A program made the position numbers and the translations under genes. The notes beneath the pieces were generated by a model, which was not told the origin of the DNA, made no database searches, and saw only the letters and a program-made list of their open reading frames with translations. Shown in pieces: positions 4,008 to 56,965 of a stretch of DNA of 64,000 nt. The DNA lies in assembly GCA_964016885.1 (NCBI GenBank), contig OZ024760.1, positions 20,894,001 to 20,958,000 of the forward strand, given 5' to 3'. The stretch comes from Eledone cirrhosa (lineage: Eukaryota). Every line of letters starts with the position of its first letter. The stretch's first letter is position 1.

Positions 4008-4416
4008 ATTAAAGAGTTAAACAAGATTCAATGAGTACATCAAAGAATGAGTTTTACAGTAGATTGGAAGCACTCTACAGTTAAAATAATTTTCCAGAGT
4101 TATTAATATTAAAATACAAATATTAATAAAATAGATGTTCTTTTGATCAATTAAATTTTATTATACATATTTCAGAGGTACAACAGTACGTCCTCATCAG
4201 ACAAAATATAATGATACATGACATACCCAAAGATGTTAAATGGTTAACATTTAATCATCTACCTTGATTAAATCTTAACCATTTAACATCTCAGGGTATG
4301 TCATGTATCATTATATTTTGTCTGATGAGGACATACTGTTGTACCTCTGAAATATGTATAATAAAATTTAATTGATCAAAAGAACATCTATCTTATTAAT
4401 ATTTGTATTTTAATAT
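4008..4416. mobile_element. Fold-back element: about 310-bp palindrome (4106-4416) plus one-sided tail
   Basis: Arms are reverse complements, with (TA)n on both sides and a hammerhead on each arm. Confidence 0.8.
4315..4367 (+). ncRNA. Type I hammerhead ribozyme motif (twin on - strand at 4155-4207)
   Basis: AUUUUGU-CUGAUGA-stem II-GAAA-U[AUGU]A-UA^AUAAAAU. Confidence 0.7.
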
Positions 4417-8021: not shown

Positions 8022-8025
<4 letters not shown>

Positions 8026-8516
8026 GTACTTTGGGAGGGTCATGTTGCCTATAAGAAACACATGCACCAGTTGCTTTCACTTCAATTTATTATAAATTTT
8101 ACAAATATAAATTTTATAAATTTCCAGTTGGTTGGTTGGTTCCACAACCGGATGGTTGTTCATATATAGTCAAAGTTCTTTCATCACACATTCTGTGACA
8201 TCTTCAGTAACCGGGGATTCTTTTCTTTGTTTTGTGCCTCTCCTTTGTTCTGTCCTACGCCATCTTGTTTTTGTGTGTGAACACACACAAAAAAAACAAG
8301 GTGGCGTAGGAGAGGCACAAAACAAAGGAAAGAATCCCCAGTCACTGAAGAGGTCACAGAATGTGTGACGAAAGAACTTTGACACTATATGAACAACCAT
8401 CCGGTTGTGGAACCAACCAACCAACTGGAAATTTATAAAATTTATAATAAATTGAAATGAAAGCAACTGGTGCATGTGTTTCTTATTGGCAACATGACCC
8501 TCCCAAAGTATAACAA
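8022..8516. mobile_element. Fold-back element centred near 8280
   Basis: Near-complete palindrome between (TA)n tracts; a shorter diverged relative lies at 23150-23360. Confidence 0.8.
8341..8383 (+). ncRNA. Type I hammerhead ribozyme motif (degenerate twin on - strand at 8169-8211)
   Basis: GUCA-CUGAAGA-G GUCAC..GUGAC-GAAA-G[AA]C-UU^UGAC. Confidence 0.6.
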
Positions 8517-8539
8517 TATATATATATATATATATATAT

Positions 8540-8757
8540 ACAGGTTCTTGAATTGTATTCAACCAAGTTTGTCCCGAGTTCAATCAGGGGTAACCACAGT
8601 AAGTAAGGTACTCAATACAAAGCAGAGTATATATATTTAATATAGAAAAGGCTTCTACAGGACTAGAACTGTTTCATTCGGGAGAAATCATCAGGAAGCC
8701 CTGATGATTTCTCCCGAATGAAACAGTTCTAGTCTTGTAGAAGCCTTTCTATATTAT
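8540..8757. mobile_element. Fold-back element plus tail (relative at 32978-33140)
   Basis: Palindrome at 8640-8755, with a tail containing GTACTCAATAC. Confidence 0.75.
8650..8700 (-). ncRNA. Type I hammerhead ribozyme motif
   Basis: GGCUUC-CUGAUGA-U UUC[UCCC]GAA U-GAAA-CAG[UUCUAGUC]CUG-UA^GAAGCC. Confidence 0.75.
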
Positions 8758-8989
8758 ATGTATGTATGTGTGTGTGGGGGGGGGGGGAGTAGAACACTGG
8801 TGGGTTATATCCGTAGTAATAGAGCACTCAGTCCATGGGACGAGTTTGGTAGAAGTAGTTCCACAACAGTTAGTTCACCATTTCCGAGAACAATTTCTTT
8901 CATCTCTAACAGATCCTCAGCTTGGTTTAAACGAGATAACACAGAAAAGTGTTATCTCATTAAAACTACTTCTATATATCATTTCATAA

Positions 8990-11124: not shown

Positions 11125-11161
<37 letters not shown>

Positions 11162-11169
<8 letters not shown>

Positions 11170-11592
11170 TAAACGGAATAGAAAATGCTGACAAATTGTT
11201 CACAGTTGAAAAATGGTTTAATTAGGAATAAAAGAGTATTAGTGATTGTATGGGTTAGTATTCAGTTGTGGTTTTAAGTTTTTAAGTTTTTACCGGTTGC
11301 GCATTTCTAAATGCTTTTCAAAAATAATTTTGAGATAGAGTGTCCGTGTTGTCTGATCAGAGCAAACAACACGGACACTCTATCTCAAAATTATTTTTGA
11401 AAAGCATTTAGAAATGCGCAACCGGTAAAAACTTAAAAACTTAAAACCACAACTGAATACTAACCCATACAATCACTAATACTCTTTTATTCCTAATTAA
11501 ACCATTTTTCAACTGTGAACAATTTGTCAGCATTTTCTATTCCGTTTACCAATATATAATAACTTGTGTGTTACACCTCTATTCTTTTAACT
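11162..11592. mobile_element. Fold-back element with near-identical arms of about 190 bp plus tail
   Basis: 11162-11351 is the reverse complement of 11367-11556; (TA)n flanks. Confidence 0.85.
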
Positions 11593-11611: not shown

Positions 11612-11862
11612 CAATGATATTAAATAAATGGAAACTATATTTATAAAACCATATTTATTTGATTATATATATTTCAAGGGTACCAAAACTTTGGTACGCT
11701 TTCATCAGATAAAATATGAAGTGTGTTTTATAAATTTTGACATAACCAAGGAAAATACCTTAACGGTTCAAGTTTTATCTGATGAAAGTGTACCAAAGTT
11801 TTGGTACCCTTGAAATATATATAATACAATAAATATGGTTTTATAAATATAGTTTCCATTTG
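11612..11862. mobile_element. Fold-back element of the PLE-leader family
   Basis: AAATGGAAACTATATTTATAAAACCATATTTATT arms are shared with the 22578 and 47520 elements. Confidence 0.8.
11656..11716 (-). ncRNA. Type I hammerhead ribozyme motif (twin on + strand at about 11773-11829)
   Basis: UAUUUUAU-CUGAUGA-AAG(C)GUACCAA[AGUU]UUGGUAC(C)CUU-GAAA-U[AUAU]A-UA^AUCAAAUA. Confidence 0.7.
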
Positions 11863-11916
11863 TTAAAAGAAAAAATTCAACAGAAACTAAGAAAACACTG
11901 GTCAATTATTATTATG

Positions 11917-22577: not shown

Positions 22578-22579
<2 letters not shown>

Positions 22580-22767
22580 CGATATTAAACAAATGGAAAC
22601 TATATTTATAAAACCATATTTATTTCGTTATATAACGAAATAAATATGGTTTTATAAATATAGTTTCCATTTGTTTAATATCGTAAACCTACTCCAGAAA
22701 CTGTTGAGTGCTTTTATATCAGTTATAAAATATTTACTCGTAACCCAACAATCTTAAATAAAACTTT

Positions 22768-22772
<5 letters not shown>
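22578..22772. mobile_element. Perfect palindrome (22578-22684) plus tail homologous to the PLE leader
   Basis: Tail ...TTGAGTGCTTTTATATCAGTTATAAAA...CCCAACAAT.TTAAATA...TGCATATAT aligns with 36236-36352. Confidence 0.85.
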
Positions 22773-22808
<36 letters not shown>

Positions 22809-23098
22809 AAAATTAAGATAATCAAAATTATGGGTGTCATGCCATAAGACATGCGCCATATCACCCGCAAAATAAGCTCTAAGATTCTAACGAATAGGTC
22901 CGAGCATTTTATAATAACTAGAAATTGATTAACATATAAATAAACATGAATAATCACAGGAGATAATTTTTACAATTGTGTAAGCACACATAGCTAGGTA
23001 GGTAACTAAATAAAGTTAACATGTGATTATTCATGTTTATTTATATGTTAATCAATTTTTAGTTATTATATATATATATATATATATGTATGTATCTA

Positions 23099-30083: not shown

Positions 30084-32184
30084 TGTCTAGGCAGATACTG
30101 CAGGAGTGCTTGCCATATCTGCTTCCCAAGTGATGTTTATTGTAAACAAGGTTTGTAGCAATTAATATATATCAGTGTCCAGGACAGCAGAAATTCTAGG
30201 TTTTACTTTCATTATAGACTAAATAGAATGAAATAGTTATACTAGTTTAACTATTTTATTGTATGGCCCCCATGTAAGTCTGGAGAGAGTTGTAGGGAGG
30301 CCGACCTGCAGTGTTTCTAGGGCATCTTTTAAACCTGGTGGAGCCCATCTCCTCTCCAGGTCTGAAGTCAGCAGATTTCTTCCAAAGAAGGATAGAGAGA
30401 ATGAGAGAATAGAAGCAAGAAAATGATATATAAAGGAAGAATTGATCCCAGTATTATACTGGTACTTTTTTTTATCAACCTTGAATGGATGAATGGCTAA
30501 GTTGAACTGTGTGTAGTAGTGGCGCCCACACACATTATTAGCTATTTGAAAAGATGATGGATTTCGCAACTAACTGCACCAGGGTTCCTGTTCCTCAGGG
30601 AACCACACTATATGGTATACCTGTTGATATAGGTCCAGCCCCTGCTTTCCCGGGTCCTGTTTCTGATCATAATGATCTCTAGGGATACGGGAATCAGTAG
30701 ACAGGACCTGGGGGCAGCGATGGGGGACAGGGAATTCTGGGGCATGAGAGTGAGATCCATCATCTCGACAGTAGTCGAAGAATGATGATGATGAAGTTGA
30801 CCTCGGTGGAATTTAAACTCAGAGAGAAGAGAGCTGAAATGAATAAAGTGAAAGCATTCTATTCAACGTTTTAACGACTGCTAATTCGCTGTCCAGCCAT
30901 TTCATTACCATATGTTTAATGAAATACGCTGCCTATGTCATTAACCTTTTCATTACCATATTTCTAATGAAATACACAGCCTATGATTCTCAAATAATTT
31001 TGAAAAGAATCTAGAATTTTGTGGGATTTTGTAATATAACTAACTACATTATTAAGTTGGTATTTGTGACAGATTGACAAATGTTCTAACATAAAATTAT
31101 GATGGAAGGTTTTAGATAAATATAGACACTTTAACACTTTTATTACTATATTTCAGGGTTTTTTAACAGCTTAAAGGTTCTAACATAAATTTATGATGGA
31201 AGGTTTTTAGATTAATATAAACACTAACCCTTTTGTTACCATATTTCTAATGAAAGATATTGTCTATGGTTTTCAAATAATTTTGAAAATAATCAAGACT
31301 TTGGAAAGATTTATTAATCATAACTTCTCATTATTAAACTGGTGTTTGAAACATAACTTAAGGGTACTTACATAAAATTATGATGGAAGGTTTTTAGATA
31401 AATATAAACACTTTAAACAAACAGCTCTGTATCATAGCACCACTGGTTTCAGATCTGATAGGTCTAATATTTATTACAGACTTATTAAAATCAATAAACT
31501 TGGAGTTGTATTTGTTTAATAAGTGACTTATTCTTCACTCCAGAAATTGTAGACTTCACTTTTCATTATAGATTTAGTAAAGATATAGACTAGTTAATAC
31601 AGTTAATATAAAGTATTGTGAGATATGTAATAAATGGCTGATAAGTTCCTGAAAGCTGGTACAATGCAATATAAAGGACAAAGGATGACAAATAAAACAA
31701 AGTAATGTTTTAGCCAGTATATTTAAACATGATATTTCAGGGCTATAATTATCTTTTCAAATCTGGACCAATTATGGAAGAATACATCGACTGTTCATTT
31801 TGTTTTAAACTGTCTTTGTTTTTGCATTTGAAAAGAGGGTATTAGCCCTGAAATATTATGTTGAAATACACTGGATAAAAACATTAATTTGTTTTGTTTT
31901 ATTTGTCATTCTTTGTCCTTGATATATTTCTACCATATTGTACTGTCTTTCTGAAATACTTAGCTCATTCATTAATTAACCCATTGATGCAAATTCACCT
32001 CAAACAACCCCTGGTTCTACAAAACGAAACTGCTTGTTTAAAAACCTTTCTTCGTAATTTCATGTAAGAACCTTTGTTAAGTTATGTTCCAAACACCAGC
32101 ATAACCCTTTTGATACTGTTTATTTTAAAGTGTTTATATTTCTCTAACCTCATCCATCATAATTTAGTTATGTTCCAAAGACTT

Positions 32185-35390: not shown

Positions 35391-35733
35391 ATCATCATCA
35401 TTTTACGTCCGCTTTTTCCCTGCTTGCAAGGGTGAGACGGGAACTGATTCTGGCTTGATTTCTACAGCTGGATGCTCTTCCTAACACCAACCTCATTTAC
35501 AGTGAGTGCTGGGTGCTTTTTTGCCATGGCACCTCCACGACCACTTTGCAGTGGTCTTAGAAATGAGATGATAGGGACCCCAGTCCCTATCATCTCATTT
35601 CTACAGCTAAGGAAACTGGAGCAATGTGAAATAAAGTGTCTTGCTCAAGGAAACAACACATCGCCCGGTCTGAGAATTGAACTCACTACCTTTAGATTGC
35701 AAGCCAATGCTCTAACCACTAAGCCATGCGCCT

Positions 35734-35736
<3 letters not shown>
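35391..35736 (-). mobile_element. SINE family A
   Basis: Full copy between (TA)n tracts. Confidence 0.9.
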
Positions 35737-35796
<60 letters not shown>

Positions 35797-35924
35797 TACC
35801 CCTCACCTCTCAAAGTCAATGACACACGACCGTGACCTCTGGCGTCACGCAGTAATACAGGGTACCCGACCTCCCATGGGTACATGCTGAAGCATATAAA
35901 CAATATGCCCCCCCCCCCCACCGC

Positions 35925-36184
35925 AAGGTGGTCGTGGAGGTGCCACGGCAAAAAAGCACCCAGCCCACACTGTAAAGTGGACGTGTAGGCGCCACGAAAA
36001 AGCACCCAGCACTCACTGTAAATGAGGTTGGTGTTAGGAAGGGCATCCAGCTGTAGAAATCAAGCCAGATCAGTTCCTGTATGAGCAAGGCATGGTCAGC
36101 CGACCAGACACTGCCCACAACAGGACAACCCGTCTAACCCATGCTAGCGTGGAAGAACGGACGTAAAACGGTGATGATGATGAT
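35925..36184 (+). mobile_element. SINE A-related 3' part with long RTE-type tail
   Basis: Ends AACCCATGCTAGCGTGGAAGAACGGACGTAAAACGGTGATGATG; similar copies at 44340-44565, 55437-55645 and 62390-62530(-). Confidence 0.75.
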
Positions 36185-36235: not shown

Positions 36236-38330
36236 TTTCCATTTATTAATATGTTGTGTATTTACTCCACTAACCAGTTGAGTGCTTTATATCAGTTCTA
36301 AAAAATTTTAAGCTTGTTGAATCCCAACAAATTAAATACCTCTGCATATATTAGGCTCCTTTATTGTTGAGCGCTTTAAATTGTAACTGATTAAAAATGG
36401 AATTCTTTAGGATATCTTCTTCTCTAAAAGACATACCTTTACCTAAGAATAAGGACTTTCTAAAACAACTTATCAAAAAATCGGGCTCGTTTATAAGAAG
36501 ACTTAGATGGCGTGCTTTTCATTTCAATAAAAAATCTGATGCGAAAGAAAATATTTCCAATCTTGATAGAATCTTCAAATCCCAAAAGAATCCATCCTTC
36601 CAACAAACTATTAATGGAATTTGAAAATGAGATTATTTCTATCATACAAAACATTAAATTTAAGAAAAACCACTTCGTAGGCCAGGATTACCTCAAATGT
36701 CTCAAAAATAATATAGAAAACTTTGAAAAAACGGAAAAAATTCTTGTTAAATCAGATAAAACCAACAATCTTTACGAAATGCAAAAGGATGATTACAATA
36801 ATCTTATATTGAAGGAATTAAGGAAAAATTACAAAAGAGCAACCAATGATGACCTTGAAAGACTAAATACTGAAGCTTCTTATATAATGCAGGAATTAGG
36901 CATCGAAAATAGGACTCAACCCTTCATACCTAGAAAACCAAAAATTAATTTGAAGGACCATAAAAGAAATTTTGAAATTGAATTACCAGTTAGACTGATT
37001 GCACCATCTAAATCGGACCTTGGCATACTTAGCAAGAATATTTTAGATAGAATCATACCACACATCTTAAGGAAATATCTTATTTAAAATTATGGAATTG
37101 GACTAATGAAGTTATTGACTGGTTTAAGGACATTAAATATAAACATAACAATAAATTCATTCAATTGGATATTGCTAATTATTACTCATCTATCACTCCT
37201 AATTTACCTAATAAAGCCCTTACATATGCATTTAAATATACTGATTTAACTAGCAATGAAATGCACATTATCTTAACTGCACGTAAAACATTAATTAAAT
37301 TTAGCAACCACCTTTGGACTAGAGCAGACAGAGATAACAATTTTGATATCACTATGGGGTCATCGGACTCGGTGCAATTAACAGATCTTGTGGGGCTTTT
37401 TATTAACAATACTTTACATAGGAAAATACCGGAGATGACCGGTGGTTTATATCGTGACGATATGCTATTACTTATTGAAAATAATAATAATTGTGAAATA
37501 AATAGGAAAAGAAAAGAAATTATACAATTTTTTAATAGCATTAATCTTAAAGTAGAAGTAGAGAATAATTATAAAATAGTTAATTTTTTAGATGTAACTT
37601 TAAACCTTAACACTGGTCTTTATTATCCATTTCATAAAATCAATGAGAATTTAAACTATGTTAACTTTAATTCCAATCACCCCAGATCCGTTAAAAACAC
37701 TATTGTAAATTCTGTGCAGCAACGTATTTCTAGAATTTCAGCGAATAAAAATATATTTGAAGATAAGGCACAATATTATAACGAAGCGTTAAGTAGAGCA
37801 GGCTATAGTAATGAAATTAAATACATTGATAATAAGGACGCATTCGATTCCAGGTGTCTGCGAAAGATCCTGGGGATTAAATGGAGTGACCATGTAACAA
37901 ACCAGGAAGTCAGGAACCGCACCAACCAGCAGCTGGTCTCTTCTGCCACCTGCAAGCGACGCCTGGGCTGGTTTGGGCACGCTTTGAGACTTCCCCCGGA
38001 GAGACTGGCGAACCAAGTACTTAAATGGAACCCACAGGGAAGCAGACGGAGAGGGCGACCCAAAATGAACTGGCGCCAGACAGTTGAGAGGGACCTGCGA
38101 GCGACAAACAGACAATGGCGGGACGCTGTGCAACTGGCTGCTGACCGAACGTGGTGGAACACTATGATTGCCTCATGCGTCGCAAGACGCGGGAGCTTCT
38201 GAGTCTGAGTCTGATAATAAGGATGTGCCAATTAACCATAATTATAAATATAATTATAATAGGAAACCTTGCACTAACTCAAAAATCAAAACACACAGAG
38301 GTTTGGATAGACTCTCATGAGAATTATTTC
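36236..38330 (+). mobile_element. Decayed Penelope-like retroelement: leader plus RT ORF from 36397, with frameshift near 36540, a break near 37085 and no GIY-YIG visible
   Basis: N-terminal SLKDIPLP...FIRRLRWRAFHF, KSDKTNNLY (DKG-type motif), LDIANYYSSI, FDITMGSSDS, GLYRDDML, VNFLDVTLNL and YVNFNSNHP...QRISRIS are PLE RT/thumb motifs. The element starts directly after a (TA)n tract. Confidence 0.85.
37839..38211 (+). mobile_element. 5'-truncated RTE-clade LINE inserted into the PLE ORF, with a 12-bp TSD
   Basis: CLRKILGIKWSDHVTNQEV...RRLGWFGHALR...RRRGRPK C-terminus, (CTGAGT)n tail, TGATAATAAGGA duplicated at 37827-37838 and 38212-38223, and an abrupt GC rise. Confidence 0.9.
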
Positions 38331-38663: not shown

Positions 38664-38713
38664 TTAATAATGCTATTAAGATTTCAGAAGGTTTATTTGA
38701 ATATTGAACATAA

Positions 38714-39021
38714 AGGCACATGGCTTAGTGGTTAGAGCATTGGCCTTGCAATCGAAAGGTTGTGAGTTCAATTCTCAGACAGGGTGATGTGTTGTTTCCT
38801 TGAGCAAGACACTTTATTTCACATTGCTCCAGTTTATTCAGCTGTAGAAATGAGATGATAGGGACTGGGGTCCATATCATTCCACTGTGTAGTGGTCGTG
38901 CAGGTGCCACGGCAAAAAAAGCACCCAGCACTCACTGTAAATGAGGTTGGAAATCAAGCCAGAATCAGTTCCCGTTCCACCCTTGCAAGCAGGGAAAGGC
39001 GGACGTAAAAATGATGATGAT
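38714..39021 (+). mobile_element. SINE family A
   Basis: Head, core and tail. Confidence 0.85.
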
Positions 39022-46584: not shown

Positions 46585-46633
<49 letters not shown>

Positions 46634-46638
<5 letters not shown>

Positions 46639-47415
46639 AAATACGTCCCTCATCAGTGATTTGCCGAAGATCATAGATATTTCATTGCATTAAAAATCAT
46701 ATATCTCACTTCGGTGCAATAATAACCAAAATAAGTTATTAGGACAATTAAAACGCGTAAAGCGAGTGAGACAGGAGAACAACAGAAAAGATAGCATACC
46801 GTGGGAGAGAAACAAGCTTCAAAAATTATTCTGTTAGCGTAAGCTAGGTGAATATATGAGCGCTAGGGAAAGAATAGTCCAGCACGAACGAAGGCCATTG
46901 AGCAGAGAGATATTTTAATACATATATTTACCACTGCGATTCTGTGTTTTTTTCTCTCTCTCTTACTGTTCCCCCATTCTCTCTGTTTCTCCCCCTCTGT
47001 CTTGTCCGTTAACTCTTCCTCACACTTTCACTCACTCACTGTTTTTCTCCCTCTTCTCTTCATTTCATCCTGCACTCACGGACGCTATTTTTTCTCTCTC
47101 TGCTCAATGGCCTTCGTTCGTGCTGGACTATTCTTTCCCTAGCGCTCATATATTCACCTAGCTTACGCTAACAGAATAATTTTTGAAGCTTGTTTCTCTC
47201 CCACGGTATGCTATCTTTTCTGTTGTTCTCCTGTCTCACTCGCTTTACGCGTTTTAATTGTCCTAATAACTTATTTTGGTTATTATTGCACCGAAGTGAG
47301 ATATATGATTTTTAATGCAATGAAATATCTATGATCTTCGGCAAATCACTGATGAGGGACGTATTTTATTACATGTTACCATGTGCTACCTGCAGTATTT
47401 TTCTCTATATTTTAA
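46634..47415. mobile_element. Largest fold-back element: arms of about 277 bp with a CT-rich spacer
   Basis: 46634-46910 is the reverse complement of 47093-47371, with a short tail and (TA)n flanks. Confidence 0.85.
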
Positions 47416-47433
47416 TATATATATATATATATA

Positions 47434-47896
47434 CATGGAAAGTTATATTTAAAATTGTTGGGTTACAACTAGTAAATATTTATAACTGATATAAAAGCAC
47501 TCGACAAATATTTGGAGTATATTTACAATATTAAATAAATGGAAACTATATTTATAAAACCATATTTATTTCATTATATATATTTCGGGGATATCATATT
47601 AACAATATGCTATGCCTTCCTCAGACAAAATACAATATAAACAGTTTTATAGATAAATAGATTCGACATACCGTTATAACACCGACTTCCATTTGAAGAG
47701 GTTTAAACTGCCAGCTTAAACCTCTTCAAATGGAAGTCGGTGTTATAACGGTATGTCGAATCTATTTATCTATAAAACTGTTTATATTGTATTTTGTCTG
47801 AGGAAGGCATAGCATATTGTTAATATGATATCCCCGAAATATATATAATGAAATAAATATGGTTTTATAAATATAGTTTCCATTTATTTAATATTG

Positions 47897-47897
<1 letters not shown>
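47434..47897. mobile_element. Fold-back element (about 47524-47897) plus PLE-leader tail
   Basis: Near-perfect palindrome centred near 47712 with twin hammerheads; tail 47434-47523 matches the reverse complement of the PLE leader. Confidence 0.85.
47790..47855 (+). ncRNA. Type I hammerhead ribozyme motif (twin on - strand at 47567-47632)
   Basis: UAUUUUGU-CUGAGGA-extended stem II (CAUAUU/AAUAUG)-GAAA-U[AUAU]A-UA^AUGAAAUA. Confidence 0.7.
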
Positions 47898-47931
<34 letters not shown>

Positions 47932-50530: not shown

Positions 50531-50971
50531 GGAGGTTATAGTTCACTTGAAGCATTGTGTAATGAGGTATAAACGTTTGAATATGTGTAATAAAGCCAAA
50601 ACAATGCAGGTATGGACATAGAAAAAAGAATGCAATTGTAAAAGATAGTGTTGACAATTCGTCCTTTACCTTAGAATTATTTAAATGTCCTTAATTTTCG
50701 AGATAATATCTCTTCTTCAGAGGGAAATAAAGGTCTCAAACCAGCGTTCTAAATATCTTGCCAAGATATTTAGAATGGCTTGGCAAGATATTTAGAACGC
50801 TGGTTTGAGACCTTTATTTCCCTCTGAAGAAGAGATATTATCTCAAAAATTAAGGACATTAAAATAATTCTAAGGTAAAGGACGAATTGTCAACAATATC
50901 TTTTACAATTGCATTCTTTTTTCTATGTCCATACCTGCATTGTTTTGGCTTTATTACACATATTCAAACGT
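50524..50971. mobile_element. Fold-back element plus tail
   Basis: 50573-50765 is the reverse complement of about 50778-50971; (TA)n flanks; CTGAAGA...GAAA hammerhead-like core with uncertain stems. Confidence 0.8.
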
Positions 50972-51068
50972 ATATATATATATATATTTATTAAAATAAC
51001 AGATTAAAGTTTAAGCAAAGAATCACTGCTTTCACCCTTAACGGGATCTTCTGAAATGTTGTTATTAT

Positions 51069-56062: not shown

Positions 56063-56724
56063 CATACATACATACACACACATTTATATACATATATATA
56101 CATAAAATGAGGCTGCACTGATGTCACACTGATACCAGTAATATACTTATATACAACTATCAAGTATATATAAATGTTTAACTGCAGCCTATATAATCAG
56201 TAAAATAGCAACATTCACTTATTTCTCCCAGTGTGTATACATATATTATAAATACATCTGTCTCTCTCTTAGAGAGAGAGACAGATGTATGTATATGGGG
56301 CACATGAATGTTTATGTACATTCCTTTATATATGTGTGTGTGTGTGTGTGTGTGGCTATCAAGTGTATATAAATGTACAACTACATGTTATAATCAGTAT
56401 GCATGAGTGAGCATATATATATATATATATGTATATATATACATACATACATACATATAAACGCGTGTGCGTATGTATAGGTAATTTAACTTCCTGCCAA
56501 TGAAGTCACATATATGTATGCATGTAGTGCCTGTATATGTTTGCGTATATATGTATATATATATATATAGAGAGAGATTTTGAGTATATGTTGGTTGCAT
56601 ACCAACACCTCAGTATGCAGGCTGGAGCACTCGATGAAGTGCGCAGGTTGGTTTGGTTACTCCGGAGTAATGTAAAATAGGGTAAAATAAAAAGTCAAAT
56701 GTTTAAAATTTAGCTTCGTTTATT

Positions 56725-56779
56725 ACTGCTATATATATTTCGGTGACAGCCATCTTTGGCTGTGACCTCTTCAGGCAGT
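56725..56779 (-). ncRNA. Type I hammerhead ribozyme motif, left-arm twin
   Basis: Reverse-complement twin of 56838-56892, with a G-C instead of G-U pair in stem II. Confidence 0.85.
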
Positions 56780-56837
56780 CCGAATTAGTGTGGTATAGAC
56801 AACAACATATGTACTTGTCTATACTACACTAATTTGG

Positions 56838-56892
56838 ACTGCCTGAAGAGGTCACAGCCAAAGATGGTTGTCACCGAAATATATATAGCAGT
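56838..56892 (+). ncRNA. Type I hammerhead ribozyme motif, right arm of the fold-back element
   Basis: ACUGC-CUGAAGA-GGU(C)ACAGCCA[AAGA]UGGUUGU(C)ACC-GAAA-U[AUAU]A-UA^GCAGU: complete core, three stems, and a minimal palindromic stem III. Confidence 0.85.
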
Positions 56893-56965
56893 AATAAACG
56901 AAGCTAAATTTTAAACATTTGACTTTTTATTTTACTTTATTTTATATATATCTATATATCTATAC

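Follow-up and report, generated by a model that had tools for sequence, protein, structure and literature searches.

The window analysed here, a 64,000-nt stretch of the Eledone cirrhosa genome, carries on its forward strand a broken open reading frame (ORF) of a Penelope-like element (PLE), together with the leader that precedes it. The ORF (36397..38290, + strand) starts with an ATG at 36397 and aligns with a full-length genomic copy, L012 (such numbers denote loci fetched from the same genome), with 1551 identities and 50 mismatches. It contains frameshifts near 36595 and at 37058–37065 and an inserted 3′ fragment of a LINE (37839..38211, + strand) with a 12-bp target duplication, and its likeness to full copies ends at 38290, at about residue 500 of 741, so that endonuclease, 3′ UTR and 3′ pseudo-LTR (pLTR) are all lacking. 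The original prediction saw a putative autonomous enzyme in this ORF, a claim that has to be withdrawn; although 96% identical to L012/L031, the window copy cannot be an active enzyme because of its two frameshifts, the LINE insertion, the truncation that removes the endonuclease and its cut 5′ end. The LINE fragment, which from its peptide we take to be RTE/LINE-like, ends in a hexamer-repeat tail, and no further copies of it were found among the fetched loci.

The leader, which is very probably the 3′ part and tail of the pLTR of a Hydra-clade PLE, can be divided into four features, all on the + strand. At 36236..36256 lies what remains, on the 3′ side, of an upstream family-A Hydra pLTR, reaching up to what we call the ‘short’ 3′ end and joined directly to (TA)n with the hammerhead absent. 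This is followed at 36257..36346 by a ‘tail’ of ~90 nt between the short and the ‘long’ 3′ ends (91–93 nt in families A, B and D). Bulged hairpin 1 (ACUC...GAGU, 36264..36283), a predicted start-site signal, stands 7 nt behind the short end and is the motif that the original prediction had quoted, whereas bulged hairpin 2 (GCUC...GAGC, 36355..36372), already within the 5′ UTR, follows the long end by 6–8 nt. The leader matches L012 with 153 identities and 12 mismatches, and is without a hammerhead because its first nucleotide lies ~30 nt 3′ of the predicted site of cleavage, right after (TA)n.

The leader had been proposed to be homologous to the tails of hairpin elements elsewhere in the window, and this was borne out. 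Residues 36236–36350 align with 22664–22775(+) and 47434–47545(−) at local alignment scores of 58 and 67, compared with a mean of ~18 and a maximum of 30 in dinucleotide shuffles (0/1000 in each case), and when 3172 tiles of the window were ranked against the leader, the top seven came from those two places, with unrelated tiles scoring 30 or less. Leader and hairpin tails are one pLTR segment, its 3′ part. This link is textbook PLE anatomy, of an architecture already published.

We searched the species' own genome (3.0 Gb) and obtained 148 matches among the 147 scored of 44,903 candidates. In L012/L031 the order of parts is (TA)n, an inverted piece of tail, hammerhead pLTR, leader, 5′ UTR and a 741-aa ORF, followed by a 1.4-kb 3′ UTR, a second hammerhead pLTR and (TA)n. 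The unit of ~3.8 kb consists of hammerhead pLTR, tail, 5′ UTR, an ORF of 737–742 aa encoding reverse transcriptase (RT) and a GIY-YIG domain, a 3′ UTR of 1.3–1.4 kb and pLTR. Family-B ORF copies have a hammerhead pLTR downstream in 5/5 and a direct pLTR upstream in 4/5, where the upstream tandems reach 490–980 nt; their ORFs are intact in 4/5 (737–742 aa) and ~72% identical to family A. A hammerhead core was found downstream in 29 of 40 ORF loci of 10 kb, one of which (L056) is a separate insertion. ORF copies carry the hammerhead arm both upstream and downstream, so that arms are present at the termini of full-length copies and the predicted pLTR–ORF–pLTR layout holds. A literature search, confined to journals outside subscription, gave no description of these families.

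With high confidence, and on the basis of motifs and by-eye likeness to published sequences, we place the element in the Hydra clade of PLEs that carry a C-terminal endonuclease (EN+). As defined by Craig et al. (2021; PMC8557442), this clade is marked by C-terminal GIY-YIG, RWK, DKT, CxCx5C, CxxC/CxH, hammerheads and insertion into (TA)n. Intact copies have a single ORF with RT followed by a C-terminal GIY-YIG, and display RWR, DKT, CNCR-x4-C, YVGST, CxxCxEE and CKH/CRH; DKT and RWR are present in the window copy and in genomic copies alike, and the CxCx5C linker with CxxC/CxH around the last E and N occurs in 11 of 12 long ORF rows, which include duplicates of one locus. Insertions lie in (TA)n, and the pLTR holds a hammerhead motif, recognized by its structure. 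Pfam returned no matches in three proteins and a PDB sequence profile none, so the domains were settled by fold search. A protein model built from 116 sequences (pLDDT 91.7; an earlier model from 7 close sequences reached 31) had TERT as its best Foldseek match, its residues 613–715 matched the GIY-YIG domain of I-TevI (Z 9.6, rmsd 2.2 Å, 88 aligned), and GIY-YIG clusters of the atlas scored 0.95–0.96. Among the best 120 of 156 homologues, 84 have DKT and none has a YIG motif solely before the RT; the closest named homologue among those listed, at 39%, is from Argonauta hians. The original placement as Naiad-like could draw on (TA)n targeting and on the existence of cephalopod Naiads, but Naiads are defined by an N-terminal EN, DKA and no canonical hammerhead (PMC8557442, in the part describing that clade), and with neither GIY-YIG nor CxC before the RT, a domain order that refutes it, DKT instead of DKA, hammerheads present and the homologue counts just given, it has practically no chance of being right.

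From the published sequences in PMC8557442, Hydra-1_Obim and Hydra-2_Amil are like the present element in domain order, DKT, an RWK-like motif and the CxCx5C linker, and Hydra PLEs are also alike in CxxC/CxH around the last EN motifs, in hammerheads and in (TA)n targets. Hydra-1_Obim itself, as given there, is another family of 2507 bp with ‘no pLTR’ and, by eye, a different hammerhead and protein, whereas the record before it, by file order Hydra-2_Amil, has by eye, behind its hammerhead, the stem and UU bulge of the bulged hairpins described here. The Hydra described there is generally <3 kb long with a tail of 30–40 bp; in contrast, the units here measure ~3.8 kb (hammerhead-to-hammerhead spacing of 3824–3882 nt in family B), have long family-specific 3′ UTRs and tails of 91–93 nt, and include family B, which is very young. 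Beside these insertions, at L082:2060-3145, L112, L117, L121 and L122, we also saw Hydra families that are more distant (35–47% amino-acid identity) and richer in GC; the genome holds several Hydra lineages.

As predicted, arms are common to the three palindromes (11612, 22578 and 47431). The first (11612..11867) is a head-to-head pair of 5′-truncated family-C pLTRs with hammerheads on both strands, in which the left arm stops at the short end and the right arm ~15 nt earlier still. The second (22578..22772) is a head-to-head pair of family-D pLTR ends, with the short end on the left and the tailed end on the right. The third (47434..47896) is a head-to-head pair of family-B pLTRs, again with hammerheads on both strands, with the tailed arm on the left (47434–47703) and the short arm on the right, the latter beginning exactly at the predicted +1 A (47707; see below). 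Each hairpin family has ORF-linked copies at 97–100% identity: the 22578 hairpin matches the ORF-linked loci L171/L176 with 144 identities, no mismatches and 3 gaps, and 47434–47703 is identical in 267/270 positions to the intact-ORF copy L134. Of the 30 fetched matches of the 47431 arm, five run on into an ORF, and all 40 of its 40 scored matches are 100% identical over 167 nt. Family C has a 3′ UTR that spans 1.1 kb or more, with ORF pieces upstream of it (L086, L089 and L082), and no full ORF was recovered among the fetched loci. The pLTR is common to the families, and A and B share no 3′ UTR.

The enzyme–hairpin link originally proposed therefore stands as far as the shared pLTR segment is concerned, but the hairpins come from sister families B, C and D, which have their own ORFs, and so are truncated insertion products and not passengers of the window enzyme. 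Published precedents exist both for hammerhead pairs on opposite strands that derive from truncated PLEs and for one-sided tails, as the relevant parts of PMC4209133 and PMC3846280 show, the former ascribing pairs 100–700 bp apart to such truncation. In 40 evenly placed 10-kb samples of the genome we counted 22 arms in 11–13 insertions, one with ORF sequence, which extrapolates genome-wide to ~82,000–97,000 insertions (95% range 41,000–166,000), or roughly 80,000–100,000. A genome search with 47790–47899 gave no matches, very common words probably having been skipped. Family B (L131–L135, L101–L130) is very young, its ORFs being intact and no fewer than 40 of its copies showing no difference over 167 nt, and this youth contrasts with the A–C mismatch at the base of its helix II.

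Hammerheads were found by pattern and then checked by covariation. The 11612 and 47431 hairpins carry cores, as predicted, and each has one in either arm (C3 at 11708− and 11779+ in the former, 47624− and 47798+ in the latter), whereas no core is present at 22578, where the axis of the hairpin falls within TATATA of helix III. Across 24 variants, pairing holds in 97.7% of the 384 cells of helices I, II and III, with four doubly changed pairs, a result that 0/500 shuffles reached and below which all slid controls fell. In Rfam, the best 150 of 201 matches contained no hammerhead, and only below-threshold miRNA matches to palindromes or microsatellites. The short, palindromic helix III implies, under the published model, that folding is dimeric, and in this helix, as in the type I motif, the present hammerheads are like the minimal hammerheads of PLEs described by Cervera and de la Peña (2014; PMC4209133). 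Unlike those in the relevant part of that report, helix II here opens with A–U (A–C in family B) plus a C–C mismatch and is without the canonical G10.1–C11.1 pair, so that the predicted ribozyme may be weak. Arms that stop at the cleavage site are rare (~3/30 in family D and none clear in 30 of family A, the B and C queries being unable to reveal them).

The 5′ ends of the arms pile up elsewhere, at an initiator-like CA(+1)CT ~85 nt before the hammerhead. In a count of 119 loci from four families, all of them top-identity matches, 38 of the 85 arms at risk ended between −6 and +8 of the A in YYCACT, compared with 4/220 in the next five 15-nt upstream bins (p 2.5e-20); the next bin held 3/47. 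By family the figures were 8/17 for A, 14/25 for B, 15/28 for C, where the query forced extension to +11, and 1/15 for D, which is diffuse or shifted (6/21 at +9 to +23, with no peak at +1). Opposite arms, which the query did not select, ended at the boundary in 17/57 cases, with 1 in the next bin. About half of the arms extend upstream past +1. In 24 of 29 downstream pLTRs the CACT motif precedes the core by 66–98 nt, in the reference copies by 79–91 nt, and a splice-donor-like G|GTATGT follows at +44/45 in families A, B and D, with GTACGT or GTAAGT in other subfamilies. Directly after exon 1 such a donor-like sequence is present in 52/52 matches of B, 24/24 of D, 32/32 of C and 34/37 of A, their loci being partly redundant, and no exon-skipped genomic copies were seen among the fetched loci.

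From this layout we infer that +1 is the predicted start of the transcript. Transcripts of Penelope from Drosophila virilis likewise start within the pLTR, 46 nt ahead of an intron (Schostak et al. 2008; PMC2377424, in the part that treats them), and the passages on Adineta Pen elements in PMC3846280 note an Inr-like TCACT and an inverted pLTR with a one-sided tail as here, and for Pen1 a long spacer before the 3′ pLTR. In the available text of both reports, upstream copies are variably truncated and a 5′-end pile-up is not mentioned; conversely, start and intron are only predicted here. Our literature search, again over journals outside subscription, found no description of a PLE 5′-end pile-up at a start site. 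The boundary might instead mark where reverse transcription of a longer RNA stalls or meets a hotspot of microhomology, as a pyrimidine run just upstream of it in family B, the diffuse ends of family D and junction letters that are only suggestive of a cap could indicate (in a small sample, 9 of 17 junctions exactly at +1 have G, clearly untemplated in 4). However, the same CACT marks the boundary in families with differing flanks, 44 nt before a conserved donor-like site, and the arrangement matches the Penelope promoter as described in the available part of PMC2377424, making a stall unlikely. The untemplated G right before +1 was seen at L076, L083, L125 and L148, and is what copying of an RNA cap would give.

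At the other side of the pLTR, 3′ ends fall at the short and long sites, 91–93 nt apart. The two arms of a hairpin use them unequally, the partner of a tailed arm being untailed in 40/40. Family C, in which arms were unselected, gave 10/13 long+short pairs, 3/13 short+short (11612 included) and no long+long, and in the systematic sample all nine of nine were tailed+untailed, one untailed arm ending ~20 nt early; no tailed/tailed pairs were seen among the mirrored insertions examined. Dropped before these counts were L084, which is the locus already entered as L079, and both L160 and L171, in which the opposite arm is >1.3 kb off; L095 was scored as tailed because it served as its own reference, and two of the window's hairpins appear as L071 and L167. 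The short end also closes plain direct insertions and full-length copies, and therefore counts as an independent start site.

The 48-nt stretches that follow the two ends are similar to one another (matched by 1, 4 and 0 of 2000 shuffles and by 0, 1 and 0 of 320 other windows) and share a twin bulged hairpin, RCUC-C...G-UY-GAGY, whose stem is paired in 91% of 180 cells. One pair is A–U in all 18 first copies and G–C in all 12 second copies, which amounts to one evolutionary change only, and the upper pair holds in 17/30; taken singly, the hairpins are no stabler than shuffles (z −1.8 to +0.4).

These data make it likely that the hairpins are short head-to-head insertions from sister families, produced by an enzyme that copies the front of its own transcript twice, and this account as a whole, the identity of the leader together with the origin of the hairpins, is in our judgement the probable one. 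The copying scheme that we propose for it is more finely balanced, as readily wrong as right. Transcription would start at +1 inside the pLTR; the protein would bind both bulged hairpins and begin reverse transcription 6–8 nt before each; both nicked strands of the (TA)n target would prime, one per site, on one RNA; and both cDNAs would extend as far as the RNA 5′ end, or close to it, before being joined head to head, which leaves a hairpin tailed on one side. For longer and full-length copies and the upstream tandems, tandem or circular RNA or a template jump would be needed. Against the scheme, arms reach past +1 in about half of the cases, which in its simple form it does not explain.

The protein of Poseidon_Ac offers the nearest precedent in the part of Frangieh et al. 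(2024; PMC11167929) that we cite: both strands are nicked and extended by it, its reverse transcription begins at two internal positions that delimit the tail, and uncleaved RNA serves as its template. Alike are the two start sites at the pLTR–ORF junction that define the tail, the AT-rich targets, the extension of both strands and the dispensability of hammerhead cleavage. In the same part of that report, however, the sites lie inside the ORF in one AC-rich stem-loop and no difference between the strands was seen, whereas here they lie before the ATG, each with a hairpin of its own, and mirrored arms use different sites.

Fold-back remains the main rival. Here a single cDNA would turn at the RNA 5′ end and copy itself, with later deletions at the palindrome centre, and self-priming has indeed been proposed for PLE palindromic junctions in the relevant part of PMC3846280. 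In 10/10 family-B hairpins the exon-1 variants of one arm recur in the other (chance 0.10), as self-copying, but also two copyings of one RNA, would give; against the latter, older family-A hairpins have identical arms in only 5/9 (chance 0.15). The comparison of 50 long+short pairs bears on it in both directions: the arms are level, with near-symmetric axes, in 15, but the short arm reaches further upstream by >5 nt in 19 (and the long arm in 16), so that each arm holds sequence that the other lacks. As the short end is moreover a start site also used in direct insertions, we consider fold-back improbable, and prefer two separate copyings of one transcript.

Far less probable still is that the hairpins are non-autonomous, retrozyme- or MITE-like units spread by the Hydra enzyme. 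Insertions of pLTR only far outnumber ORF copies (ORF in 1 of 11–13), several family-B hairpins share an axis near +1, and retrozymes derive from pLTRs in the part of bioRxiv 10.64898/2026.07.22.740005 that deals with their origin; yet junction letters differ among hairpins of the same axis, axes spread overall from −350 to +133, head-to-tail arrays are absent and the ORF-linked copies noted above exist for every hairpin family. We also rejected the identification as a non-LTR retrozyme, since the arms are inverted and in longer copies run on into 3′ UTR and ORF; the non-LTR retrozymes of that preprint form, in the same part of it, head-to-tail arrays, of which there are none here.

Returning to two copyings of one transcript, a bolder reading, which we offer tentatively and lean slightly against, is that the first 330 nt may form a copying cassette with a capped start, a hammerhead intron and two enzyme-seating hairpins, on which a dimer would prime both (TA)n strands, the ~90,000 stubs then being the strong-stop DNA of PLEs. 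If so, the stubs would map promoter and start sites at the single-base level without RNA data. PLEs are the sister group of telomerase RTs, and the relevant part of PMC8557442 treats the way in which they generate inverted and tailed insertions as an open question; a young family with intact ORFs, two start sites, candidate RNA signals and a predicted transcript start provides exact substrates for the existing in vitro assay. What we describe are new families within a clade already known, with footprints that bear on mechanism and can be tested, and for annotation it follows that tens of thousands of genomic hammerhead palindromes are Hydra stubs and not miRNA loci or a new class of retrozyme.

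Other palindromes with hammerhead-like cores lie in the window at 4106–4416, 8023–8514, 8628–8766, 50568–50976 and 56670–56947 and belong to other PLE families; cores are on both strands in four of them and on a single strand in the case of that at 50720, and the palindrome at 4106 is a more distant Hydra-like pLTR. Long inverted repeats that adjoin (TA)n and have no pattern-matching core were seen at 11160–11558, 46631–47374, 22910–23070 and 31669–31925, the first three of which have dispersed relatives in the fetched loci. In addition, nested tRNA-derived SINE-like repeats, very frequent in the genome, lie in opposite orientations at 35393–36176 and 38700–39020.
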